This document shows, piece after piece, positions 3,388 to 63,264 of a DNA stretch of 64,000 bases (position 1 is the first letter of the stretch; each line of letters starts with the position of its first letter). This DNA is from an uncultured Candidatus Saccharibacteria bacterium (lineage in GTDB: Bacteria > Patescibacteriota > Saccharimonadia > Saccharimonadales > JAUPVS01): the NCBI GenBank assembly GCA_964410185.1, contig CAYPFM010000003.1, forward strand, positions 18,437 to 82,436. Reading direction: 5' to 3'. Below the pieces are notes generated by a model, which saw nothing but the letters and a program-made list of their open reading frames with translations, ran no database searches and was not told the origin of the DNA. Position numbers and translations under genes: made by a program.

Positions 3388-3867
3388 TTATTGTTTTGCT
3401 TCGGTCTTTTTCTTGCTGGCTGGTCGGCCAACCTGAGCAACCTGTTCAAAACTACCACCGGCTTTTTTAACAGCAGCGGCAGCGGCAACACTTGCAGCCT
3501 GCAGCTTAACCGTTACCTTAGCGGTAACATCACCGTTAACAACCAGCTTGGCTTTGCAGAAAGGACTGCTAATGATACCAACTTGGGCCAAGACAGCGTT
3601 ATCGACAGTCTTGCCGGCAAAGTTATTCAACTGGCTTGTGTAGACAATTTCAATCTTGGCACGATGCGAGTTAAAACCGCGAAGCTTTGGTAGACGTTGC
3701 ATCAATGGTGTTTGACCACCTTCAAAGCCTTGTCGTACGCCGCCACCAGTACGTGAGTTTTGACCCTTGGTACCACGGCCAGCAGTTTTACCACCACCAG
3801 CGGCGATACCACGACCAAGGCGTTTGGCGCTCTTGTGTTTGCTAATATTTAGTTCGTTGTAGCTCAT
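3388..3867 (-). CDS. rplO: 50S ribosomal protein L15
   Basis: 159 aa with a Gly/Arg-rich N-terminus (KRLGRGIAAGGGKTAGRGTKGQ). The ATG overlaps the rpsE stop (TAATG). Confidence 0.95.
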   Translation of the reverse strand: MSYNELNISKHKSAKRLGRGIAAGGGKTAGRGTKGQNSRTGGGVRQGFEGGQTPLMQRLPKLRGFNSHRAKIEIVYTSQLNNFAGKTVDNAVLAQVGIISSPFCKAKLVVNGDVTAKVTVKLQAASVAAAAAVKKAGGSFEQVAQVGRPASKKKTEAKQ

Positions 3868-12068: not shown

Positions 12069-12326
12069 AGTTCTTTCTTTAGTTAGTTTATTGCTCACTA
12101 TTTTTTGAGCATTTGCATAAAAATGCTTGGTTACTAGTGGTTTCTACCTCTGTTATTGGGAGGTGGACCTGCTAATTGACCAAGTAAAACTTTTCTCTGC
12201 AATCTACTCAAAATTGAGATACCATAACAGAGTACCACGCGCCGCCCACTCCTGTCAATATGTTGCAAAAACTACTTCATTCATCAAAGGGTGGCTTTTT
12301 TGGCTTTTTCGTGGTATAATAGCTTT

Positions 12327-12926
12327 ATGTCACTTACCTTGCCGTCCCCTGATTATGCCGGGGCTGTTGATCCAGATCATTTTGCCCGCTTTTGTGGCTT
12401 GTACGAAGCGAGGCCTCGTCGAGCCATTCCAGAAATGGAAGCGTACGACCGCATGCTTGTTCAGGAAGCCGACCTTTTACTCGAACCGGTCAGAAGCAAC
12501 CTCAGCGGGACGACAACTTTTGCTGTTGGTGGTTTCCGGGTCGTCACCTACGAACCGACATTGCCAGATCAATCCTTTGGCGGTTCTTATACTGGGGAAT
12601 GGCATGTCGATGGGGTCCCTGATGACGGAGCCATCGAAACCCTCATTGCTGACATCCAGACAACCGAGGCGTTGAGCGGAGAACTCGATCTGGACAAGCT
12701 TGGCTGGTCAGGCAATCAAGTCGATGACGCTCTAGCAGAAGTATTGGCCGGGCACGATGATCAAACACTGGTCGACGGCTATGGTCTCACCATCCATGAT
12801 GGCATGCCAACACACACCGCACTAGTTTCTGCCGAAAGCTTGGTTCATCGTTCTCCGGCGAATAAAACCGGACAATTAGTCACACGTAACCTTTTGGTCG
12901 CCAAGTTTATTCCAGTCGATAACTAG
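12327..12926 (+). CDS. hypothetical protein (orf211); distant paralog of orf204 with an HxD...H...R signature
   Basis: Long ORF. TATAAT at 12315-12320 lies 6 nt before the ATG at 12327, suggesting a leaderless start. Motifs WHVD, DALAE, LVHRSPA and RNLLVAKF are shared with orf204. No family is securely recognised. Confidence 0.6.
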   Translation: MSLTLPSPDYAGAVDPDHFARFCGLYEARPRRAIPEMEAYDRMLVQEADLLLEPVRSNLSGTTTFAVGGFRVVTYEPTLPDQSFGGSYTGEWHVDGVPDDGAIETLIADIQTTEALSGELDLDKLGWSGNQVDDALAEVLAGHDDQTLVDGYGLTIHDGMPTHTALVSAESLVHRSPANKTGQLVTRNLLVAKFIPVDN

Positions 12927-13201
12927 AGCGCGATTGTTAACCCGAGCGGCAACCACAAGCCTACGAACATTGCCATCAGTAGGACGGCATATTCAATCTT
13001 GCGATCAAGCTGGAAATGTTCGTGACTAGCAAATACCAGCCCGATAATCAGGCCAACCGGTATTGGAATGACGGAGCCGTTACGATCGATACGCACCCAA
13101 AACGAACCAATAATCAGATACATCACCAGCTTTAAGAAGTAGGTGCTATCGATTTCTTTGGTTGGTTTGCGAGTTTTTGATTTCGTTTTAGCTTTAACCA
13201 T
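12923..13201 (-). CDS. small hypothetical membrane protein (orf94)
   Basis: A basic N-terminus followed by 2-3 hydrophobic helices. TATACT lies 7 nt before the ATG at 13201. Its stop shares the tetranucleotide CTAG (12923-12926) with the orf211 stop. Confidence 0.55.
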   Translation of the reverse strand: MVKAKTKSKTRKPTKEIDSTYFLKLVMYLIIGSFWVRIDRNGSVIPIPVGLIIGLVFASHEHFQLDRKIEYAVLLMAMFVGLWLPLGLTIAL

Positions 13202-13245
13202 AAGCAATAGTATAGCAATCTAGGGTGTTATAGACTAACCCTGCT

Positions 13246-13860
13246 ATGACACACCTGTTACCAGAAGGCTTGCACAAAGTAGGCCACGCAGACGAAGACG
13301 TATTTTTGCGCATTGACCAGCTACTCAAAGAAGCAGCTCCAAATACCGAACGCCTATCTTTCGTTAAACTTGCGGGGCACCAACAAAAAGGCTTTTCGGC
13401 CAGTCAACAAGAATCGATCGAGGCCATCTTCACGCCCTTTGTGGCGGACCTCGATACGCCTTACACCGAACTATCTCTGGGCATCGATCTCCGTGGCCAA
13501 GCATACTATGGGCGACAGGAGGCGCAAAGGCAGTCGTTTTGGCATAGCGAAGCATCGTCTCGTTCACTGTCTAACATTGGTCACTTGGGGACCTGGTTTT
13601 TAGTAGATCAACGTTCGTGTAATCCAAACGCAGGGCTTCGTGCTCTCACCGGAACCATGTTGGCGCAAGAGTATGGCATGGATCCGGTCGAGTTAAGCGA
13701 ACTACCAAGCGATGCGTTGGCAGAAGCAGGCTTGGCAATCTACCAAGCTACACCAGGTAGCATTATTGACTATTCTGGAGTTTTGCACCGCGTACCGGCA
13801 GACTTATACGATAACCCTGACTGTGGTCAGAGAATATTCGCGCGCGTAACGGTATTTTGA
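13246..13860 (+). CDS. hypothetical protein (orf204); distant paralog of orf211 with an HxE...H...R signature
   Basis: 204 aa ORF carrying WHSE, DALAE, VLHRVPA and RIFARVTVF. Its stop (13858-13860) directly abuts the convergent rpsJ stop (13861-13863). Confidence 0.6.
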   Translation: MTHLLPEGLHKVGHADEDVFLRIDQLLKEAAPNTERLSFVKLAGHQQKGFSASQQESIEAIFTPFVADLDTPYTELSLGIDLRGQAYYGRQEAQRQSFWHSEASSRSLSNIGHLGTWFLVDQRSCNPNAGLRALTGTMLAQEYGMDPVELSELPSDALAEAGLAIYQATPGSIIDYSGVLHRVPADLYDNPDCGQRIFARVTVF

Positions 13861-14208
13861 TTACATTTTGATTTCGGCGTCGCAGCCGGCTGGCAAGGAA
13901 AGATTCATCAAGCTATCGATGGTCTTTGGAGTTGGCTCCAAAACGTCGATGATGCGCTTGTGAATGCGCATTTCGAACTGTTCACGACCCTTCTTGAAAA
14001 CGTGTGGGCTCTTAACAACTGTGTAAACAGTCTTCTTGGTAGGCAGTGGGATTGGACCGGCAATAGTAGCGCCGGTGCGCAATGCGGTGTCGACAATCTG
14101 CTTGGCAGACTGGTCGATTACTTTGTGGTCGTAGGCCTTTAGGCGAATACGAATCCGCTGCTTACCAACTTCTGTTTTTGGGGCTGGTGTTTTTTTGGCT
14201 TCTGCCAT
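13861..14208 (-). CDS. rpsJ: 30S ribosomal protein S10 with a short Lys/Pro-rich N-terminal extension
   Basis: S10 core [29 protein letters not shown] lies 8 nt before the ATG at 14208. The track ORF start at 14235 is probably too long. Confidence 0.94.
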
Positions 14209-14311
14209 AGTGATAACTCCTGTGTGAAGTAACATCTTTGGTGCGCTATAGAGAACGACAACAACGACTTTTAGTCTTCACGATTAATTTACTAGCTGAT
14301 TTTACAACAAA

Positions 14312-14656
14312 TCAGTCGGGTTGTCTATCGGGATATCCGTTGACGGCCTGCCGATCTTCGGCGTAAAGGTGTCGCAGCGGTGAACTTATGCGATCCAAGT
14401 TATTCGCCAACGCAGCTGCTTCAACTGGCAGCATCGGGCCGTCATAGTCAACAGGGAAACTAAACGCACCTTCGAGTCTGGCGGCCTCGCCTTCAACATC
14501 GACTTGAGTGCCAGGGTCGACGTGCAACTCCTTCACAACTAATCCAATCAGGCTCCAGGTGTGCACGACGGTTTTTCCTTCGGCAGCTTTTCGAAACTGC
14601 TCGGCCGTTGTCATGGCGAGTGTTTGGCGTACGTCTTCTTGTGTTACTTCTGACAA
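14312..14656 (-). CDS. hypothetical acidic protein (orf114)
   Basis: 114 aa ORF. TTG start preceded by AGGAG at 7 nt. It begins 10 nt after the orf85 stop. No recognisable motif. Confidence 0.55.
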   Translation of the reverse strand: MSEVTQEDVRQTLAMTTAEQFRKAAEGKTVVHTWSLIGLVVKELHVDPGTQVDVEGEAARLEGAFSFPVDYDGPMLPVEAAALANNLDRISSPLRHLYAEDRQAVNGYPDRQPD

Positions 14657-14666
14657 TGCATTACTC

Positions 14667-14924
14667 CTATTCGACTATCCGTTGGACTTGTCGTTCTTTT
14701 GAAAGCTCGATGATAATCCCTTCTACCGCTGCCACTTGAGGATCCCAGTCTAAACGAAGCTGGTCCGGGTAAACGACCGCTCCCTTCCTGACTTCTGGAT
14801 AGTCAGTGTCCCAACAAAATGCCTCGCCAATTCTAACATCGGCCTTTTGTAGCATTCGTCGGTAGGCTGTTTCAGAATAATCACTGACGCCTTCTGCTGG
14901 GGAACCATAACTCATCATATACAT
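14667..14924 (-). CDS. hypothetical acidic protein (orf85)
   Basis: 85 aa ORF. TATAGT (14927-14932) sits just upstream, so the ATG at 14918 (8 nt downstream of it) may be a leaderless start. No recognisable motif. Confidence 0.5.
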   Translation of the reverse strand: MYMMSYGSPAEGVSDYSETAYRRMLQKADVRIGEAFCWDTDYPEVRKGAVVYPDQLRLDWDPQVAAVEGIIIELSKERQVQRIVE

Positions 14925-15023
14925 TTACTATACAACCTTTTGACACATAAGAAAAGACCCCCTCGTGAAGCTACTGTTGCTTGGCTTCTTTTCGGGAGCG
15001 CAGGACAGAGTCATTGCCGAGCA

Positions 15024-15062
15024 CAAAAAATGAGACGTATTTGACATACGTCTCATTTTTTT
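15024..15062 (-). terminator. rho-independent, bidirectional-looking terminator downstream of tuf
   Basis: Perfect 10-bp stem ATGAGACGTA / TACGTCTCAT with a 7-nt loop. It is flanked by an A6 run on one side and a T run on the other, and lies about 50 nt after the tuf stop. Confidence 0.8.
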
Positions 15063-15112
15063 GACGGAGGCTATTGCCTGTCGTGTGCCCCGATAAAGGA
15101 GCGTGGGTGTTA

Positions 15113-16294
15113 CTATTTGGTGATCTTAGTAACAACACCAGCACCAACGGTGCGGCCACCTTCGCGGATAGCGAAGCGCAGACCTTGTTCCATGGCGATT
15201 GGAGCGAGCAACTTAACCTTGAAGGTTACGGTGTCGCCTGGCATGACCATTTCTTTGTCAGCTGGAAGCTCAACTTCACCAGTTACGTCCGTTGTACGGA
15301 AGTAGAACTGTGGCTTGTAGCCTTTGAAGAAAGGAGTGTGACGACCACCTTCTTCTTTGGTGAGGATATAAACTTCAGCATCAAATTCGGTGTGAGGAGT
15401 CACAGTACCTGGCTTAGCCAAGACCTGACCGCGCTCGATATCGTCGCGCTCAATACCGCGGAGCAGGATACCAACGTTGTCGCCGGCTTGACCCTGATCG
15501 AGGTTCTTCTTGAACATTTCAACACCAGTAACGGTTGACTTCTTGGTGTCGCGGATACCGACGATTTCGATTTCTTCACCGACCTTAACGATACCTTGCT
15601 CAACACGGCCGGTAGCAACAGTACCACGACCCTTGATTGAGAAGACGTCTTCGATTGGCATCAAGAATGGCTTGTCGAGTTCGCGCTTTGGTTCTGGAAC
15701 GAAGTCGTCCATAGCCTTAACGAGTTCCATGATAGCGTCTTCGTTAGCAGCATCGCCTTCGAGAGCCTTGGTAGCAGAACCCTTGATGATAGGAGCGTTT
15801 TCGTCGAAACCGTTCTTACCAAGCAGTTCGCGGATGTCCATTTCGACCAATTCGATCAGTTCTGGATCGGCGAGGTCCATCTTGTTCATGAAGACCAAGA
15901 TGCTTGGAACGCCCACTTGCTTGGCAAGCAGTACGTGTTCGCGGGTTTGTGGCAGTGGACCATCGTTGGCAGCAACCACGAGGATGGCGCCATCGATCTG
16001 AGCAGCACCAGTAATCATGTTCTTAACGTAGTCGGCGTGACCTGGCATGTCGACGTGAGCGTAGTGACGCTTCTCTGACTCGTATTCCTGGTGAGAAGTA
16101 GCAATGGTAATACCACGAGCTTTTTCTTCTGGGGCGTTGTCAATTTCGTCGTACTTAATAGGCTTGTTAACGTCGCTAGGAAGCTTCTTAGCCAAAACAG
16201 CGGTAATTGCTGCAGTTAGAGTAGTTTTACCATGGTCAACGTGACCCATAGTTCCTACGTTTACGTGAGGCTTGCTTCGGTCGAAATCTGCCAT
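15113..16294 (-). CDS. tuf: elongation factor Tu
   Basis: 393 aa containing [18 protein letters not shown] and NKMD G-motifs. Confidence 0.98.
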
Positions 16295-16403
16295 TTATGT
16301 CTCCTAAAATTATTACTGGTTTAATGTTTTACATACGTGGGGCAACTAGCTCCACGAGAGTTACCGATATATTTTAACGAATCCTACGGTGTTTGTAAAG
16401 GGG

Positions 16404-16961
16404 TTACAGCCAGCGCATGCGCGAGAACGCTTCGGGGGTGGCTAAGCGAGCTACGTCTTGAGCGACGCGGCGTGGTCGTGACAATGGGATGTGCCTGATT
16501 ACTTCGATGGCTCGGGCTTGTCGGGGGTCCTGGCTATTGGTCTTAGAGGCGGCAATACCACTGAAAGTACGTAAAAGATTCCGGCGGTGTGTACCAGGGA
16601 GTTTCGGAGCGTGTTCGATGGCAGTAATCGTATCAGTCGCCGCAACGGTAAGGGTGGCGATGTTTTCGAAGTGGACGTGTTCACGGGTGGCAACTGTGGC
16701 GAGTACTCGAGTGACTATACTGGTCTGCGCCTTACGCAAGGTTACATCCTCAAACGCCCGATCGCCGTATATATTCTTGGACACAGCGAGTTGCTGTAGC
16801 AAGAACATGGTTGGCGTGCCATCTTCGGCCACACCAGGAAATAGCATCGGGTCAAAAAGCGTGTTAGCCCAAATCAGACCACCCTCTTCACACTGTTGGA
16901 TCTGGTCAAAATAGGCGGTAATTGCCGCTTCGTGCGAAAGTGTTTGCTCGCTGCCACTCAT
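16404..16961 (-). CDS. hypothetical protein (orf185) between fusA and tuf
   Basis: 185 aa ORF starting 18 nt after the fusA stop on the same strand. Acidic N-terminal half and Arg-rich C-terminal third. No recognisable motif. Confidence 0.6.
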   Translation of the reverse strand: MSGSEQTLSHEAAITAYFDQIQQCEEGGLIWANTLFDPMLFPGVAEDGTPTMFLLQQLAVSKNIYGDRAFEDVTLRKAQTSIVTRVLATVATREHVHFENIATLTVAATDTITAIEHAPKLPGTHRRNLLRTFSGIAASKTNSQDPRQARAIEVIRHIPLSRPRRVAQDVARLATPEAFSRMRWL

Positions 16962-16979
16962 ATCTTAACTACCAACAGG

Positions 16980-19067
16980 CTACTTGGCGTTCTTGGCAAT
17001 AATCGCTTCGGCTACGTGACCAGGCACATCGGCGTAGTGGTCAAGCTCCATGCTGGAGCTGGCACGACCCTGGGTCGAGCTACGCAGGTTGGTAGTGTAA
17101 CCAAACATTTCACCGAGTGGTACGAAAGCGGTAATTTCTTTAACACCGCCGGGGAGGTCTTCCATCGATTCAATGCGACCACGCTTGGCGTTCAAATCGC
17201 CAATGACGTCACCCATGAACTGTTCTGGAGTTACGACGACCACTTTCATGATCGGCTCCATCAAGACTGGATTAGCGGCCTTAACACCGGCCTGCAGACC
17301 CATCGAGCCAGCAATCTTGAAGGCCATTTCGTTAGAGTCAACTTCGTGGAAGGAACCATCATACAGTTCAGCCTTGATGTCAACGACTGGGTAACCAGCC
17401 AAGACACCGTTCGCCATAGCTTCTTTAATACCTTCGTCAACTGGCTTGATGTATTCGCTTGGAACCACACCACCCTTGATAGAGTTGATGAATTCGTAGC
17501 CCTTACCCGGTTCGTTTTGACTCAAGCGCAACCAGACGTGACCATACTGACCACGACCACCAGACTGGCGGACAAACTTACCTTCGGCTTCGACGGCATC
17601 CTTGCGGATGGTTTCGCGGTAGGCAACCTGTGGCTGACCGATGTTGGCTTCGACATTAAATTCGCGCTTCATACGGTCAACAAGGATTTCGAGGTGCAAC
17701 TCACCCATACCACTAATGATGGTTTGAGCGGTTTCATCGTCCACACGGACGCGGAAAGTTGGGTCTTCTTCGGCTAAGCGCTGCAAGGCGATTGACATCT
17801 TGTCTTGGTCGGACTTGGTCTTTGGCTCGATAGCAATGCTGACGGGAGGTTCTGGGAAGGTGATGCTTTCCAAAACAATTGGGTTAGCGGCGTCACACAG
17901 GGTGTGACCGGTGGTAGTACCCTTGAGACCAACGATGGCAGCAATGTCACCAGCACCGACTTCAGTCACGTCTTCGCGCTTGTCGGCCTGGAGGCGGACG
18001 ATGCGGCCAACACGTTCTTTTTGGCCAGTTGAGCTGTTCAAAACGTAAGAACCAGCGGTAACCTTACCCGAGTACACGCGGAAGTAAGCTAATTTACCAA
18101 CAAATGGGTCAGTCGTGATTTTAAAGGCCAGGCTGGCAAATGGCTGTGACTCATCGGGCTTGCGCTCGATTTCTTCGTCGTTCTTAGGGTTCTTGCCCCA
18201 AGTTGAACCGATGTCCAGTGGGCTTGGTAGGTAGTCGTTAACCAGGTCGAGGACTTTTTCGACGATTACACCACGGCCGTCACCACCTGTGACGATAAAG
18301 AACTTACCAGTCAAAACAGCGGTACGGATAGCTTGCTTGATTTCGTCCTTGCTGAGGCCTTCTTCGCCAACTTCAAAGTACTTCTCGAGGATGGCTTCAT
18401 CTTCGGCCACCGCATTCTCGATGAGCAGGCTGCGGGCTTTCTTAGCTTGGTCAAGCATATCTTCTGGGATCTCCGCTTCGACCAATTCTTTGTCGTGGAA
18501 CTCGGTGTAGGTGTAGGCCTTCATGTCAACGAGGTCGATCAGACCGTTAATTGACTGTTCGAAACCAATTGGCAGGTGAATCGGGAAGGCGCGCTTGTTG
18601 AGGCGAGCGTGGATAGAGTCGAGAGACTTGTAGAAATCGCCACCGGTTTGGTTGATCTTGTTGATGAAACAGATACGAGGCACACCGTACTTGTCGGCTT
18701 GGCGCCAAACAGTTTCGGACTGTGATTCGACACCCATCTTGCCGTCAAAGACCACACAGGCACCGTCGAGGACGCGCAGTGAGCGCTCAACTTCGACCGT
18801 GAAGTCAATGTGACCTGGGGTATCAATAATGTTAATCTGGTGACCCTTCCAGAAGCAAGTAACAGAGGCAGCAACAATGGTAATACCACGTTCGCGCTCT
18901 TGTTCCATCCAGTCAGTAGTGGTTTCACCTTCGTGCACGGCACCAATCTTGTGATTAAGCCCAGTGCGGTACAAAATACCTTCCGTCGTTGTAGTCTTAC
19001 CGGCATCAATGTGCGCGATAATACCAAGGTTACGGATGTTCTTCATTTCAGTTTTCTTTGTTGCCAT
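16980..19067 (-). CDS. fusA: elongation factor G
   Basis: 695 aa containing AHIDAGKTTTTE, DTPGHIDF and NKIN. Confidence 0.98.
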   Translation of the reverse strand: MATKKTEMKNIRNLGIIAHIDAGKTTTTEGILYRTGLNHKIGAVHEGETTTDWMEQERERGITIVAASVTCFWKGHQINIIDTPGHIDFTVEVERSLRVLDGACVVFDGKMGVESQSETVWRQADKYGVPRICFINKINQTGGDFYKSLDSIHARLNKRAFPIHLPIGFEQSINGLIDLVDMKAYTYTEFHDKELVEAEIPEDMLDQAKKARSLLIENAVAEDEAILEKYFEVGEEGLSKDEIKQAIRTAVLTGKFFIVTGGDGRGVIVEKVLDLVNDYLPSPLDIGSTWGKNPKNDEEIERKPDESQPFASLAFKITTDPFVGKLAYFRVYSGKVTAGSYVLNSSTGQKERVGRIVRLQADKREDVTEVGAGDIAAIVGLKGTTTGHTLCDAANPIVLESITFPEPPVSIAIEPKTKSDQDKMSIALQRLAEEDPTFRVRVDDETAQTIISGMGELHLEILVDRMKREFNVEANIGQPQVAYRETIRKDAVEAEGKFVRQSGGRGQYGHVWLRLSQNEPGKGYEFINSIKGGVVPSEYIKPVDEGIKEAMANGVLAGYPVVDIKAELYDGSFHEVDSNEMAFKIAGSMGLQAGVKAANPVLMEPIMKVVVVTPEQFMGDVIGDLNAKRGRIESMEDLPGGVKEITAFVPLGEMFGYTTNLRSSTQGRASSSMELDHYADVPGHVAEAIIAKNAK

Positions 19068-19094
19068 GTATCAATACCTACCCTGTCTTAATAT

Positions 19095-19430
19095 TTAAAA
19101 GTTCTCGATGAAATAATTTGCGCTAGTTAAGTAGCCAAGTTCTTCGGCAATAGTCGCCATTGTGTGTTTGATTCTTGTCTTGTTTGTAGGTTCTTCTGTT
19201 GAACCGGCCGCAGACTCTTCTTGCATCAAGTATGAGAGTGTCGTCGCCTCCTGCCCTACGATAGGTGCCCACAGTCTAACGTTGTGTTCTCCGCCGATGC
19301 TCTCAAGAAAGTCTGCCGAGAGGTGGACTGGTGGCTGAATTCTGACAAGACCACCAGCAAAATCATTATTCGTACCTACGGTTATTTCATATCTGCCATA
19401 GGGTGATGGGATTCCAAAAAATTCAGACAT
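19095..19430 (-). CDS. hypothetical acidic protein (orf111) between rpsG and fusA
   Basis: 111 aa ORF starting 12 nt after the rpsG stop and ending 27 nt before the fusA ATG. No recognisable motif. Confidence 0.55.
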   Translation of the reverse strand: MSEFFGIPSPYGRYEITVGTNNDFAGGLVRIQPPVHLSADFLESIGGEHNVRLWAPIVGQEATTLSYLMQEESAAGSTEEPTNKTRIKHTMATIAEELGYLTSANYFIENF

Positions 19431-19442
19431 CTCTGGGTTAAC

Positions 19443-30183: not shown

Positions 30184-31467
30184 TTATTTTTTAGTAACGT
30201 AGCCGACGAGTTTGTCGATGGTTTTCTCGCTGAGAATACGCATTGCAATGTCTTGCTGATTCTCTGGCTTATCAAGCTCAGCCTGCATGGCAGGATCTTG
30301 ATATTGGCCTTTGAGCAGTTGGACACGCAGCTGAACTTCTTCGGGTGTCACCCGGATTCCCTCTTTATCAGAAATTTCACTCAATACCAAGCCGGCCTTG
30401 ACGCGGGTCTCGGCGGTAGCGCGGTTGCGCTTGCGGTGCTCTTCTTCGGTCACACCTTCTTCTTTAAGGTGTTCTTCCCAGGTCTGGCCTCTGTACATTA
30501 AGTTTTGGCGCTCTTCGCGCTCAGCGCTGTCGAGCTGCTCTTCTACAAGAGCTTCTGGTACATCGAGCTTACTCTTGCTGGTGATTTGTTCGAGGATTTG
30601 GTTCTGGAAGTCACGGTCGACTGCCTGCTGGCGCTCGGCGGTTAGCTGCGTTTTGATGTCAGCCTTGAGCTCGGCCAAGTTCTTAAACGGACCGACCTTG
30701 CTGGCGAATTCGTCATCGATTTTAGGTAATTCAATAGTTTGCACCTTGTTAACGGTCACCTCAAAAGTAACGGCTTTGCTGGCCAGGGCGGCGACGCCGT
30801 AATCCTTCGGGAAGTTCAAAGTAAAGGTTTTTTCGGCACCAGGCTTGAGGCCAATCAAATTATCTTCAAAACCAGGGATAAAGTTGTTACTACCCAGGAT
30901 GAGCGGATAATCTTTGCCGTCAGCGCCATTAACAGGGTTGCCCTTGTCGTCGGTGCCCTTAAAGTCGATTAAGACTTCGTCACCTGACTTAGCAGCCCGT
31001 TCGACTTCCTTTTTGTCGCCAGCCCGTTCGGCCAAACTTTTTAGAACGTCAGTAATATCAGCAGCGGTAACGGAAACCTTGGGCTGTTCAAGTCGCATCT
31101 TGGTGTAGTCGGGCAACGAGATGTCGCCAATCACGTCAACCTTGACTTCAACTTCTAGCAGGGTGAATGGTACAAACTTCTTAATGCTAACTTCTGGGCG
31201 ACTGACGGGACGAAGCTTCTCTTGCTTGATGGACTCGGCATAAAAGTGGTTAATAGCCTCTTCCATGACTTCGGTCTGAAGCGCGGTTGGGTCAAGGTTC
31301 TTTTCGATGACGGCCTGAGGGGCCTTGCCAGGTCGGAAGCCGGCCACTTTAACGTTCTTGCCAAGTGACTTTACAGCGGCTTGCTTAATGGGGCTTAGGT
31401 CCGCCTCGTGAGCAGTGAAGTTCAAAGCGACTGACGTAGTTGTGAGTTGAGATTTTTTTACATGCAT
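30184..31467 (-). CDS. tig: trigger factor
   Basis: 427 aa with an N-terminal ribosome-binding region (GFRPGKAP), a PPIase-like middle domain and a C-terminal domain. TATAGT lies 8 nt before the ATG. Confidence 0.93.
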   Translation of the reverse strand: MHVKKSQLTTTSVALNFTAHEADLSPIKQAAVKSLGKNVKVAGFRPGKAPQAVIEKNLDPTALQTEVMEEAINHFYAESIKQEKLRPVSRPEVSIKKFVPFTLLEVEVKVDVIGDISLPDYTKMRLEQPKVSVTAADITDVLKSLAERAGDKKEVERAAKSGDEVLIDFKGTDDKGNPVNGADGKDYPLILGSNNFIPGFEDNLIGLKPGAEKTFTLNFPKDYGVAALASKAVTFEVTVNKVQTIELPKIDDEFASKVGPFKNLAELKADIKTQLTAERQQAVDRDFQNQILEQITSKSKLDVPEALVEEQLDSAEREERQNLMYRGQTWEEHLKEEGVTEEEHRKRNRATAETRVKAGLVLSEISDKEGIRVTPEEVQLRVQLLKGQYQDPAMQAELDKPENQQDIAMRILSEKTIDKLVGYVTKK

Positions 31468-35193: not shown

Positions 35194-37230
35194 CTAATTT
35201 AGATTTGTAATCGCGCGAAGCGCTGTAACGTGCTCATATAACTCTTGGTATTTTAGCAAATTTTCGCCTTTATCAATAACTTCCTGAGCAGCTTGGCGGG
35301 CCGCCGCAATTAGTCTGGTATCTGTTAATTTGGCAATTCTGAGGTCTAATTGTCCGTGCTGGAAGGTGCCGTAGATCGCACCCGGACCACGCAGTTCCAA
35401 GTCCAGCTCGGCCAAGGCAAAGCCGTCACTGGTATTGGCCAATGCCCGAAGGCGTTTGCTGGGCACCTTGGCTTCGGTCAACATCAGGTAGCAATAGCCC
35501 TGGTGGTGACTACGCCCTACCCGTCCGCGCAACTGGTGCATCTGGGCTAGACCAAACCGCTCGGCACTTTCAATCAGCATGACGGTGGCGTTGGGCACGT
35601 CAACACCAACCTCAATCACTGTGGTGGCCACGAGCACATCAAGTTTATGCGCCACAAAGTCTTCCATGATTTGATTTTTTTCGTCGGCCTTCATCTTGCC
35701 ATGCAATAGGCCGACTCGGTAGTTTTTAAACTCGCGTTCGGAGAGATCTTTGTAAACTTCCTCAGCCGAGCGAGCCTGTAATGCCGATGAATCGCTAATC
35801 AACGGGGTGACCACAAACATTTGTCGGCCAGCATCGAGTTGCTGCTTGATGGTTGCATACAGTTGCTGGCGCGAATGGTTCGACACCAATTCGGTCTTGA
35901 TTGGTAGTCGATCACTCGGCTTGACGTCAATCACCGTGATATCAAGCTCACCATAGAGCGTCAGCGCCAAGCTGCGCGGAATTGGCGTGGCCGTCATATT
36001 GAGTACGTGCGGCATATGCCCGGCCTTCTTTTGCAGTTGCTTACGCTGATCAACGCCAAATCGATGTTGTTCATCGATCACGACCAACCCCAGTTTGTGC
36101 ATATCGACGGTTTCCTGGATCAGGGCGTGCGTACCAACTATCAGCCGCACCGTGCCATCGGCGATATGACTACGGACCAGGGTTTTTTGCTTGGGTTTGA
36201 GTCCGCCAACCAACAAGCCGACCTGATTCGCAAAACCGAGGGGCTCCAACAGGTTATAGAGTGTCTCGGCGTGCTGCCGGGCCAAGAGTTCAGTCGGTGC
36301 CATAAAGGCCACCTGAAAGCCCTGCTCCATAGCCATGAGCGCCGCCATCGCCGCCACCACCGTCTTACCAGAACCGACATCGCCTTCAATCAAACGATTC
36401 ATCGGGTGTTTTTGTTGCATATCCATATATATCTGCCAGACCGCTTTGCGCTGAGCGTCGGTCAAGGTAAAGGGCAGATGGCTGACAAACTCCTTGGCGA
36501 GGGCTTCTTTAAACGGAATCTCGAGGCTTTCGAGCTTTAGAATCTCGTATTTGTTCATCAGGGCCGCCAAACTCAACTGGAAGACCTCTTCAAATCCTAG
36601 CCGGGCCCGGGCACGTTCCAAATCATCGGCATCGGCGGGAAAGTGGATGGCATGCAGTGCCTGGCTGCGACTGATAATTTTTTGCTGTTTAATAATCCAG
36701 GCTGGCAAACTTTCCGGTAGTTTATCGACCATCGGAATCACGTTTCTGATTGCCCGCCGGATTTGGGCCGATTTTAGACCCTTGGTCTCTCGGTAAATTG
36801 GCACGATTCTAGCACTGTTAACCGGAAAGTCGCTGACGAGCTCTAGGGCAGGGTTCATAATCGCCAAGCGCTGGTGAGACATCTCAAACAGGCCAGTTAT
36901 AAAATAGTCGGTACCCCGTTTGGTTTGAGTAGCGCGATATGGCTGGTTGAACCAGACCAACCGTACACTTCCCGTGTCGTCGCTGGCAACCGCTTCGGTA
37001 ATATGCATGCCACGGCGCACATAACGACCCTTGATCTCTTTAATCTGAGCCCGGATCGTGACGGTGCCTGGGTGGAGTGCCTTAATGGTTTGAATCTGCG
37101 AATAATCATCGTAGCGACGAGGAAAGTAAAACAATAGATCCTGAACGGTTTTTAAGCCGAGCTGCGCAAACTTAGCGCCTACGGCTGGACCAACTCCCTT
37201 AACGTCCTGCAACGGACTACGTAATTCCAT
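35194..37230 (-). CDS. recG: ATP-dependent DNA helicase RecG
   Basis: 678 aa with a wedge domain plus SF2 helicase motifs (GDVGSGKT, DEQHRFG, TATPIPR, QLRGRVGR). TATACT lies 6 nt before the ATG. Confidence 0.96.
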   Translation of the reverse strand: MELRSPLQDVKGVGPAVGAKFAQLGLKTVQDLLFYFPRRYDDYSQIQTIKALHPGTVTIRAQIKEIKGRYVRRGMHITEAVASDDTGSVRLVWFNQPYRATQTKRGTDYFITGLFEMSHQRLAIMNPALELVSDFPVNSARIVPIYRETKGLKSAQIRRAIRNVIPMVDKLPESLPAWIIKQQKIISRSQALHAIHFPADADDLERARARLGFEEVFQLSLAALMNKYEILKLESLEIPFKEALAKEFVSHLPFTLTDAQRKAVWQIYMDMQQKHPMNRLIEGDVGSGKTVVAAMAALMAMEQGFQVAFMAPTELLARQHAETLYNLLEPLGFANQVGLLVGGLKPKQKTLVRSHIADGTVRLIVGTHALIQETVDMHKLGLVVIDEQHRFGVDQRKQLQKKAGHMPHVLNMTATPIPRSLALTLYGELDITVIDVKPSDRLPIKTELVSNHSRQQLYATIKQQLDAGRQMFVVTPLISDSSALQARSAEEVYKDLSEREFKNYRVGLLHGKMKADEKNQIMEDFVAHKLDVLVATTVIEVGVDVPNATVMLIESAERFGLAQMHQLRGRVGRSHHQGYCYLMLTEAKVPSKRLRALANTSDGFALAELDLELRGPGAIYGTFQHGQLDLRIAKLTDTRLIAAARQAAQEVIDKGENLLKYQELYEHVTALRAITNLN

Positions 37231-45013: not shown

Positions 45014-46033
45014 CTAGTTGGCCGTCTTGGACTCGATATGGCTGTTTAGCTCTTGCGAGAGGTTCTGCGCCTCAACGGCAATGGCGTTGCGCTTGGCAAC
45101 AATCTCGTTGTAAGTGGCAATTTGGCGTTTAGTCTGAGCAACCAACACATTGTAGGCGTTAATCTGCGCGTTAAAGTTGTCAACACTGGCATTGTAGGTT
45201 GACGTGTTTCCGCTGCTCAAGAGGCGGTTAAGCTCTTGGCGCTGTGAATCAAGACTGGATGAACGGGCCGTTAACGAAGCTTGGTTCTCTTCGATTTGTT
45301 TTTTAAGATCAGTCAGCTGCTGATCGTAGGCCGTAATTTGATCCTGGCGGCTCGTAAAGGCATTGCGGTATTGGTTGGCGTAGCCTACGACGGCTTGCCG
45401 ATCAGTAAAGTACTGCTTGTAATAGTTCTCCAGTGCGGGTGGCAAGTCAGCGACTTCCGTGCCAAAGATAGAGTGCATTTCGTTCACTAAATCATTCGGT
45501 TCGAATTTTTTGTAAGACTCAAAGGTGGCCAGTAAGCGCTTGTTATTTTGGATATTGTGATCGTAGTAGTTTTGCAGCATAGAATCGACGTTGGCGCGTT
45601 CTTTGGAGCTAAGTCGATCGTAAGCACTGTGCAGCATCTCGTGAGCCGCCGTCACCTCCTCTACCCCTTTTAGCTGTGGGTCAGATACACCGTAGATAAA
45701 AATGCCGCGTTGAGGTGGTTTGTAACATCCCAAAATAATCGTCTGCTCGCCACCGTTGTTTGGGCAGTTACTGTTGAAGTCGGCTTTATCTTGCACGGCC
45801 GGCCGGTTGACGTAAAAGTCGTGTTTGGATTTGGCCGTCATCGTAGTCGTTTCAGCCAGCGCGACAACATTCGCCGGTGCCTGATAGCCGCGCAGCCGAT
45901 ACCAATCGTAGATGGCCTGACGCTGCGCAAAGACCACGGCCACCATTGTGACCGCAATAAACAGCGATATAAGTCCTCGGGAGTGGCGTTTTGGTTGGGC
46001 GGTGGCTGTTGGAGTTGACGTCGGTTGGGGCAT
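45014..46033 (-). CDS. membrane-anchored protein with an HExxH motif and a Q/N-rich coiled-coil C-terminus
   Basis: 339 aa with an N-terminal TM helix, the candidate zinc-peptidase motif AAHEMLHSAY and a roughly 110 aa heptad-like C-terminal region. Confidence 0.6.
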   Translation of the reverse strand: MPQPTSTPTATAQPKRHSRGLISLFIAVTMVAVVFAQRQAIYDWYRLRGYQAPANVVALAETTTMTAKSKHDFYVNRPAVQDKADFNSNCPNNGGEQTIILGCYKPPQRGIFIYGVSDPQLKGVEEVTAAHEMLHSAYDRLSSKERANVDSMLQNYYDHNIQNNKRLLATFESYKKFEPNDLVNEMHSIFGTEVADLPPALENYYKQYFTDRQAVVGYANQYRNAFTSRQDQITAYDQQLTDLKKQIEENQASLTARSSSLDSQRQELNRLLSSGNTSTYNASVDNFNAQINAYNVLVAQTKRQIATYNEIVAKRNAIAVEAQNLSQELNSHIESKTAN

Positions 46034-63003: not shown

Positions 63004-63264
63004 TTACTTATCCTTCCTCTTACTAACTGCATCAAAAATATTGGTTAATACTCTTCCTATGGCCACCGGCGCGGCAGCATTCTGAAACATTTCGGCGGCT
63101 GCTTCGGCGCGATCGGCAATTTCTTCGCCTTTGGTAGCGATACGCTGCACGCTATCAGTAACTTTAATCAGTTTAATTAACAGGACGATTCCCAAAATCA
63201 GGAAGACTGCCAGGGTAATCGATAAAATGACGACGAGGATTGTTAGACTGGTTTCTGTACTCAT
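63004..63264 (-). CDS. small membrane protein (DUF948-like)
   Basis: 86 aa with an N-terminal TM helix and a charged helix. Often found beside YtxH. Family assignment is tentative. Confidence 0.55.
   Translation of the reverse strand: MSTETSLTILVVILSITLAVFLILGIVLLIKLIKVTDSVQRIATKGEEIADRAEAAAEMFQNAAAPVAIGRVLTNIFDAVSKRKDK

Follow-up and report, generated by a model that had tools for sequence, protein, structure and literature searches.

Two genes for small acidic proteins in a variable slot between tuf and rpsJ of a Saccharibacteria genome

What are two small genes of no known family doing between tuf and rpsJ? The question is raised by a 64,000-nucleotide (nt) stretch of DNA from an uncultured Candidatus Saccharibacteria bacterium (hereafter the window; coordinates are window positions unless another locus is named), whose minus strand carries rpoB, rpoC, rpsL, rpsG, fusA, tuf, rpsJ, rplC and the remaining S10/spc ribosomal protein genes. 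The 904-nt interval between tuf, which encodes EF-Tu, and rpsJ, which encodes ribosomal protein S10, holds two open reading frames (ORFs), orf85 and orf114, whose products are listed in public annotation as 'hypothetical protein'. The initial annotation of the window took them for a tightly coupled two-gene module that heads a new transcription unit in front of rpsJ. We conclude that orf85 and orf114 are real protein-coding genes, and that they are lineage-restricted accessory genes in a variable slot, which is a known kind of locus. The fuller reading, which we consider probable, is that they form an accessory cassette for two fast-evolving small acidic proteins at a permissive transcription-unit boundary that turns over throughout Saccharibacteria, with a probable leaderless-type promoter of its own and read-through into an independently controlled rpsJ.

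On the minus strand, tuf is followed by a terminator hairpin, the hexamer TATAGT, orf85, an AGGAG-N7-TTG start signal, orf114, a gap of 103 nt and rpsJ, which begins with an ATG codon at 14208 (Table 1). Much of this had been described accurately before. The strong terminator that had been placed after tuf is a perfect 16-bp hairpin, and the 81 nt around it (15005-15085) fold at -28.8 kcal/mol (z = -5.6, equalled by none of 200 shuffles). The AGGAG-N7-TTG signal ahead of orf114 is present after a 10-nt spacer and overlaps the stop codon of orf85, so that the two ORFs form a tight co-directional pair with overlapping translation signals. The same-strand distance from orf114 to rpsJ is likewise as reported. 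An alternative start of orf114, the ATG at codon 15 that underlies a 100-amino-acid (aa) call by JGI, has no Shine-Dalgarno sequence. In orf85 there are in-frame ATGs at 14924, 14918 and 14915, of which 14924 is the first.

Coding statistics support the view that both ORFs are translated. In a 3-periodic Markov model trained on 30 long window genes, the annotated frame scores highest of the six frames for orf85 and for orf114, and their scores are reached by 0.8% and by none, respectively, of 2281 random ORFs of 80-130 aa from composition-matched sequence. Composition-matched random stretches of 908 nt contain two non-overlapping ORFs on the same strand, one of at least 85 and one of at least 114 aa, in 0.6% of cases. 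Base composition by codon position follows GC1 > GC3 > GC2 in both ORFs, as it does in tuf, and the coding scores are close to those of further small genes outside the ribosomal set, among them a conserved 94-aa membrane protein in the vicinity. The products have isoelectric points (pI) of 4.66 and 4.65 and net charges of -5 and -9. The same locus is present in two further metagenome contigs at 100% and 99.97% nucleotide identity, and both ORFs are intact in all three of these independent samples. We also considered a single gene split by a frameshift and rejected it, as the frame of orf114 is open for just 6 codons upstream of the TTG. The matter is settled by divergent homologs: since these exist for both ORFs, sequence comparison places both under protein-level constraint, now or recently. 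The initial description of two small, co-directional and closely spaced genes for acidic proteins therefore agrees with the coding statistics, the homologs and the pI values.

These homologs are not easily found. In single-sequence searches, neither protein found a meaningful match in Pfam, NCBIfam, PHROGs, PADLOC or PDB sequences, in keeping with the earlier remark that neither contains a recognisable motif. A word-indexed search of 5.8 billion proteins returned only the queries themselves. When 1.84 billion representative proteins were scanned in full with HMMER for orf114, only the query came back, together with two repeat-protein artefacts, the low-complexity repeat P0003 and the Ig-like repeat protein P0004, which we rejected as repeat-inflated. 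For comparison we took, from the GTDB species representatives, the 80 loci closest in rpsJ. Nearly all of them carry the label Candidatus Saccharibacteria or Saccharimonadales, the rest being unclassified metagenome-assembled genomes from within the group; their best rpsJ identity to the window is 87-94% and their Tuf identity at most 94%. Neither orf85 nor orf114 has a tblastn match in these 80 species.

For orf85, relatives emerged elsewhere. In rpsJ-anchored metagenome contigs, tblastn detects a homolog in locus L151 (E = 8e-12); its 41.5% identity across 65 aa is also that of the protein P0006 (E = 8e-12 and 5e-13). A profile search of the 5.8 billion proteins, based on the alignment so obtained, retrieves exactly three sequences, namely the query, P0006 and P0007 (the last at E = 9e-6), and among 25,231 ORF segments of the fetched loci these three are the only ones to contain the motif F.W[ED]..[YF]..V....V[IV][YF]P. 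The family keeps this 18-residue aromatic/hydrophobic motif, a length of 81-85 aa and its acidity across three lineages. P0007 is g81 of locus L163, whose Tuf is 93.4% identical to that of the window, and it is the first gene past the tuf terminator there. P0006 belongs to locus L164, whose Tuf is 85% identical, and lies 9 nt past the rpsJ stop codon without a promoter of its own.

Locus L163 also contains the relatives of orf114. Its slot reads tuf, terminator, g81 (orf85 family), g85, g75, g119 (orf114 family), promoter and leader, g87 (orf114 family) and rpsJ, with g87 inserted between the rpsJ leader and rpsJ itself, 2 nt from the rpsJ start codon. The Smith-Waterman alignment of orf114 with g119 scores 78 (z = 11.1) and that with g87 scores 56 (z = 6.8); neither score is reached in 2000 shuffles, and control pairs remain at z < 2. 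The alignment of all three proteins has 14 invariant positions. Acidity is kept in both families (pI 4.4-4.8). Neither family matches Pfam, and PDB profile searches with the family alignments returned nothing. The search for remote homologs that the initial annotation had recommended thus gives three orf85-family proteins, the query among them, and, for orf114, two relatives in L163. A further ORF of 94 aa in the tuf-rpsJ slot of locus L013 (9553-9852, plus strand) matches g87 at E = 0.038, the orf114-family profile at E = 0.48 and orf114 at E = 1, and may be another, very divergent member of that family. A candidate RHH domain in the L164 homolog of orf85 was rejected, being sub-threshold (E = 0.066) and found in no other family member.

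As to co-occurrence, which had also been proposed as a check, both families are present in the L163 slot but are not adjacent there. Two genes separate g81 from g119, and L164 and L165 carry the orf85 family without any orf114 relative; the two families are neighbours in the window only. The notion of a tightly coupled two-gene module does not hold beyond the window. Both families have so far been found only in Saccharibacteria, and only beside rpsJ or tuf. Their members are 28-42% identical where the Tuf proteins are 85-93% identical, and their divergence is incongruent with that of the core genes. Because the more distant genome has the closer homolog of orf85, this incongruence points either to rates that are uneven or to genes that have moved among lineages and slots.

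Is the position of the pair exceptional, as had been supposed? In 69 related species tuf and rpsJ lie 4 to 3437 nt apart (median 636); the distance is 200 nt or less in just 15, and across the species examined it exceeds 300 nt in 72%. The position of the pair is unusual for bacteria in general, but not for this phylum. Three more junctions behave in the same manner, with rpsG-fusA, fusA-tuf and rpsJ-rplC exceeding 300 nt in 56%, 75% and 88% of species, compared to 0-9% for the six control junctions from rplC to rpsC. Almost every species fills the tuf-rpsJ slot differently. Among the 203 same-strand slot ORFs with 50 aa or more in 133 loci, 176 have no relative in another locus at E < 1e-4, a singleton count that includes the orf85 and orf114 relatives, which fall below its threshold. 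Most of the 78 cargo ORFs in the slot have no domain. The Pfam domains that do occur are Ldh, sugar transferase, PLD, DnaJ, VanY, NUDIX, glyoxalase and one IS200 transposase, the only transposase among the 78; the slot of the window contains no integrase, transposase or other mobility gene. Within the window, each expanded junction is filled by ORFs without known function, and five of the six slot ORFs have a pI below 5, compared to two of 31 other non-ribosomal proteins.

The arrangement common to the relatives appears to be tuf, terminator, cargo, promoter, leader and rpsJ. Because of this shared layout, the pair is best read as cargo and not as a leader of rpsJ. As a boundary between two transcription units, the slot would tolerate gene gain, gene loss and rapid divergence, and its highly conserved flanks could anchor homologous recombination in naturally competent bacteria. 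Saccharibacteria combine natural competence with homologous recombination through flanks of ~1 kb (PMC10633639), and tuf and ribosomal-protein genes are prominent among the inferred transfers between Patescibacteria (PMC12455944), which makes it plausible that genes arrive by homologous recombination through the conserved flanks, a route that we infer.

Table 1. Features of the tuf-rpsJ slot and of the other expanded junctions in the window.
Feature	Position	Strand	Details
tuf (EF-Tu), upstream slot boundary	15113..16294	-	393-aa ORF; 83-94% identity to Tuf of Saccharibacteria loci
Intrinsic terminator of tuf	15025..15061	-	perfect 16-bp inverted repeat 15025-15040 / 15046-15061, 5-nt loop
TATAGT, candidate -10 box of a leaderless-type orf85 promoter	14927..14932	-	from the sequence; 8 nt to ATG 14918
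orf85	14667..14924	-	85 aa (83 aa if the start is ATG 14918); acidic; member of a three-lineage family
Shine-Dalgarno sequence AGGAG of orf114	14664..14668	-	overlaps the TAG stop of orf85 (14669-14667); 7 nt to TTG at 14656
orf114	14312..14656	-	114 aa, TTG start; acidic; two divergent relatives in one other lineage
rpsJ promoter, TAGACA-17-TAAAAT	14299..14327	-	-35 at 14327-14322, within the 3' end of orf114; -10 at 14304-14299; 10/12 consensus matches
Predicted structured leader RNA of rpsJ	14217..14288	-	two nested helices; covariance model R1, 49.5 bits, E = 2e-9
rpsJ (ribosomal protein S10), downstream slot boundary	13861..14208	-	Pfam Ribosomal_S10, E = 5e-35
111-aa ORF between rpsG and fusA	19095-19430	-	tblastn against L163-L165 only
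185-aa ORF between fusA and tuf	16404-16961	-	no tblastn match in 80 related species
204-aa ORF between rpsJ and rplC	13246-13860	+	no tblastn match in 80 related species
211/199-aa ORF between rpsJ and rplC	12291-12926	+	211-aa form: no tblastn match in 80 related species

Downstream of orf114, rpsJ has a promoter and a leader of its own. Nearly all of 61 aligned relatives have a -10 box ~10-16 nt upstream of the leader. The upstream region of TM7x rpsJ has served as a working promoter in Saccharibacteria, and tuf flanks have served as promoter and terminator (Wang et al., PMC10633639). The leader was found by aligning the rpsJ upstream sequences of relatives, and covariance model R1 was built from 56 of these sequences. 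The element opens with ATTAAT and the 5' strand of helix P1, continues through GACTAAAAGTC (or GAGAACTCGG), a variable hairpin and GATGTTAC (or GAGGTTAC), and closes with the 3' strand of P1 followed by the Shine-Dalgarno sequence. In the first set R1 has 64 matches (the window and 63 of the 80 relatives), and it has 47 more in 83 loci outside model building; every match is on the rpsJ strand and upstream of rpsJ, with at most one per locus. Compensatory changes are present in nine of ten base pairs, as judged by RNAalifold and by explicit pair counts. Of the alignment cells, 95.3% are paired compared to 62.8% in shuffles, and the covariation score of 0.883 compares with 0.255 in shuffles, none of 500 reaching it, and at most 0.157 with slid partners.

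Promoter and leader keep their position upstream of rpsJ in most relatives, whatever the slot holds. As predicted here, the leader element marks the true start of the rpsJ 5' untranslated region (UTR). Rfam has no match to it at gathering thresholds over the whole window, nor at E <= 10 over 14100-15120, and the element is a candidate new ribosomal-protein leader RNA absent from that database. Conserved, covarying structures in the rpsJ 5' UTR that abut the Shine-Dalgarno sequence are a feature that it shares with the E. coli S10 leader, which is regulated by L4, and with the published 'rpsJ motif'. The latter comes from Peptostreptococcaceae (PMC11109978), and the window leader differs from both in clade, in having no Rfam match and in having no U-tract after the structure. 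Since P1 abuts the Shine-Dalgarno sequence and no U-tract follows, translational control would be more likely than attenuation. In three other loci an ORF stands between the leader RNA and rpsJ (leaders at L003 9700-9771, L017 9508-9579 and L163 4181-4252), and in such cases the leader would control a two-gene unit.

A terminator scan finds no terminator between orf114 and rpsJ, so that transcripts of the pair probably continue into rpsJ; read-through is likely, although it is not required. The initial proposal that the pair heads a new transcription unit in front of rpsJ is thus correct as far as the missing terminator and the probable read-through are concerned, but the promoter and the leader of rpsJ lie downstream of orf114. 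The pair is not situated between the rpsJ promoter and the rpsJ coding sequence, and the term leader genes of the rpsJ transcript does not apply to it.

How would the pair itself be transcribed? The initial annotation had pointed to TATAGT at the head of orf85, with ATG 14918 located 8 nt further on. Both are present and the promoter is plausible, but 14918 is the second in-frame ATG and not the first. A -10 box with at least five of six matches that ends 6-10 nt before an ATG is found in 11 of 66 window genes, against a background of 1.8% (P = 3e-8). With its start at 14918, orf85 fits this pattern and has no Shine-Dalgarno sequence, and one other window gene has the identical TATAGT-N8-ATG layout. 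Further examples of the pattern, with boxes TATAAT, TATACT or TATAGT, are 30184-31467, 35194-37230, 45014-46033 and 63004-63264 on the minus strand and 12327-12926 on the plus strand. Among 51 confident genes, only 27 have a Shine-Dalgarno core of at least 4 nt. This, together with the enrichment of the -10-ATG pattern, suggests that leaderless or near-leaderless mRNAs are common in the source genome, and it favours ATG 14918 as the probable start of an 83-aa orf85 product. What orf85 shares with genes of leaderless mRNAs, as far as the DNA alone can tell, is the -10 box 6-10 nt before the start and the absence of a Shine-Dalgarno sequence. Among the top-ranked papers of a literature text search, we did not find the term 'leaderless' applied to Saccharibacteria.

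Taken together, these features outline a possible mode of expression. A bicistronic mRNA, leaderless or near-leaderless, would start just past TATAGT and be translated from ATG 14918, and orf114 would be translated from its own AGGAG-N7-TTG site at the orf85 stop codon. With no terminator behind orf114, the transcript would run on into the promoter and leader of rpsJ, and rpsJ would be driven and regulated by these two elements independently of the pair.

Several observations weigh against the reading of the pair as an accessory cassette with its own promoter. A lone TATAGT-like hexamer is not significant (an estimated ~0.27 are expected per 100 nt), the orf85 promoter has a weak -35 element, and the site goes unreported in a simple promoter scan. 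In addition, the strong tuf terminator would make expression of the pair depend on this unproven promoter. The slot shows neither scars of mobile elements nor flanking repeats, apart from short matches at the level of chance. The orf114 family is built on two pairwise alignments of 28% identity, and single-sequence AlphaFold predictions are uninformative for both proteins, with predicted local distance difference test (pLDDT) values of 44 and 38. The codon-model scores are -0.06 and 0.08 bits per codon, compared to 0.29 +/- 0.13 for housekeeping genes. These intermediate scores, above random ORFs and below housekeeping genes, would also suit an explanation in which the ORFs are functionless or barely functional, i.e. 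young or decaying frames that drift in an expanded intergenic region and are kept by chance and read-through. The extremely narrow taxonomic distribution, the very low confidence of structure prediction, the mostly lineage-specific cargo in the same slot of other species and the very fast divergence relative to Tuf point in the same direction. Drifting frames would, however, hardly retain the motif, length and acidity of the orf85 family across three lineages or 14 invariant positions in three orf114-family sequences. Both ORFs are intact in all three samples that carry the strain, orf114 has a good Shine-Dalgarno sequence at optimal spacing, and the L164 homolog and g87 of L163 occupy strongly expressed positions, where useless ORFs would presumably be costly. 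On balance we regard this explanation as unlikely, while giving it some weight. A related idea, put forward in the initial annotation as the finding that would overturn it, is that the whole region is an untranslated 5' leader of rpsJ. The tuf terminator does imply a new transcript start somewhere upstream of rpsJ, and no terminator separates orf114 from rpsJ. Yet the conserved promoter and the covarying leader begin downstream of orf114, at 14327-14288, both ORFs are conserved as proteins in other lineages and the coding statistics favour translation. From these comparisons the idea appears largely refuted already, and we consider it barely credible.

Two further explanations assign the pair a definite role. 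In one, it is a type II toxin-antitoxin or toxin-immunity module in which binding neutralises the toxin and translational coupling fixes the ratio of the two proteins. The pair shares with such modules two small co-directional genes with closely coupled translation signals, 10 nt apart and arranged so that the ribosome-binding site of the second reaches into the stop codon of the first, typical sizes of 85 and 114 aa and a patchy, accessory distribution; a second lineage has both families in the same slot, and the L164 homolog of orf85 lies 128 nt upstream of a MazE/AbrB-type gene. However, searches of Pfam, NCBIfam, PADLOC and PHROGs at E <= 1, homologs included, reveal no match to any family of toxins, antitoxins, immunity or defence proteins, and a DNA-binding domain of the antitoxin kind is absent from both proteins. 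The two are acidic, whereas toxins are mostly basic. Adjacency is not conserved, given the two intervening genes in L163 and the missing orf114 family in L164. The MazE-like gene of L164 is a separate unit with its own TTGACA promoter and palindromic, operator-like AATTACGTAATT sites, for which reason we rejected a link to the orf85 family, and the window has no such gene. We therefore consider a toxin-antitoxin role very improbable. The initial annotation had likened the pair to a toxin-antitoxin, immunity or adaptor pair while stating that no class was supported; its caution was justified, and the likeness itself finds no family match and no support for toxin-antitoxin or immunity function. 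In the other explanation, the two families would work with the neighbouring translation genes, as acidic partners, chaperones or modulators of S10/NusE or EF-Tu. All three orf85-family members adjoin rpsJ or tuf, although the profile search of 5.8 billion proteins that recovered them was unbiased. The placement of the L164 homolog just behind rpsJ without its own promoter, the position of g87 between leader and rpsJ in L163 and the conserved acidity of both families, opposite an S10 pI of 9.95, also fit such a role. Proximity would nevertheless be natural if the genes descend from, or move between, adjacent permissive slots, and the slot structure explains it equally well as a functional tie does. 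Since most Saccharibacteria lack both families, these are not needed for S10 or EF-Tu function in general. A role as partners of S10 or EF-Tu is in our judgement improbable.

The accessory-cassette reading places the pair among known phenomena. It is a general concept of bacterial pangenomics that conserved core genes can flank integration or variability hot spots, in which lineage-specific ORFan accessory genes reside. The tuf-rpsJ slot shares with such hot spots conserved flanks in fixed order around a content that changes from species to species, a cargo of mostly small, narrowly distributed genes without known function, and the similar behaviour of the rpsG-fusA, fusA-tuf and rpsJ-rplC junctions. 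It differs in lacking an integrase, attachment sites and flanking repeats, with a single transposase in its cargo, in that the slots lie inside the str-S10 ribosomal gene cluster, which is normally tightly packed, and in that some cargo families, such as the g75-like family at 11 loci, appear to be long-term residents rather than imports.

What could the proteins do? The products of orf85 and orf114 have no enzyme, DNA-binding, signal-peptide or membrane features. The absence of such features and the conserved acidity weakly indicate soluble binding or modulator proteins, possibly acting together, as the likeliest role, which is a guess. That composition and missing features are the whole basis of this proposal counts against the functional part of our interpretation. 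As a functional analogy only, the proteins resemble known small acidic inhibitors such as DNA mimics, anti-restriction proteins and anti-CRISPR proteins in being small, acidic, soluble, fast-diverging, narrowly distributed and free of enzymatic motifs. They differ from these in having no sequence or structural match to them and in being encoded on the chromosome beside housekeeping genes and not on a phage or plasmid. It would be a long shot to see in the orf85 and orf114 families, and perhaps in other small acidic residents of the slots around rpsJ, a new class of proteins that evolve fast and have as their target the translation and transcription machinery of the adjacent genes. Such proteins might bind or buffer S10/NusE or EF-Tu, or shield them from attack by the host bacterium or by phages. 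If that were true, Saccharibacteria would have in their broken-up str-S10 cluster a dedicated site of high expression where such factors evolve, and an interaction of the acidic proteins with S10 or EF-Tu would be a new kind of lineage-specific modulation of the core machinery.

By itself, the pair contributes two tiny families of hypothetical proteins to the many uncharacterised genes of the candidate phyla radiation, and its genomic context is more useful than the pair. The four interrupted junctions of the str-S10 cluster are defined, naturally permissive sites at which gene gain, loss and divergence can be studied in ultra-small epibionts, and they could also be used for inserting engineered genes. 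The by-products of the analysis, i.e. the candidate rpsJ leader RNA absent from Rfam, the interrupted str-S10 cluster and the leaderless-type promoters, may outweigh the pair in importance.

Some smaller observations concern the neighbourhood of the slot. The tuf terminator has an A-run before and a T-run after its hairpin and is thus bidirectional in form; a simple terminator scan does not report it because the stem absorbs the T-run. A comparable hairpin with a T-run is found within the first ~60 nt past the tuf stop codon in 45 of 69 relatives. Over the slot, the sole near-hit in Rfam, mir-71, is the tuf terminator hairpin itself. The orf85/orf114 junction is partly complementary to the rpsJ leader; we examined this too and rejected it, as the matches are not collinear and no coherent structure is possible. 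The MazE/AbrB-type gene of L164 (6260-6560; 59 aa, Pfam E = 1.4e-7) is solitary, with a TTGACA promoter and two AATTACGTAATT palindromes; it has no MazF partner, and glmS comes next.

Interruptions of the str-S10 cluster, at positions 12099-19442 of the window and in loci L003-L165, affect four junctions, with expansions of up to 8 kb. The g75-like proteins form a helical family of ~75-150 aa with a sub-threshold match to DUF1319, which occupies the tuf-rpsJ slot of at least 11 lineages and is absent from the window. The L163 member lies at 3534-3761 and has homologs in L021, L034, L045, L087, L109, L115, L116, L122, L123 and L152, making this the most widespread slot-specific family seen. In the window, rpsJ and rplC are separated by 1.76 kb that include two opposite-strand ORFs, and the end of the 204-aa ORF coincides exactly with the end of rpsJ on the opposite strand. 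The same interval contains the 94-aa basic membrane protein (12923-13207, minus strand), a so far unrecognised resident of this neighbourhood that belongs to no Pfam family and is kept between rpsJ and rplC in 48 of the 80 relatives.

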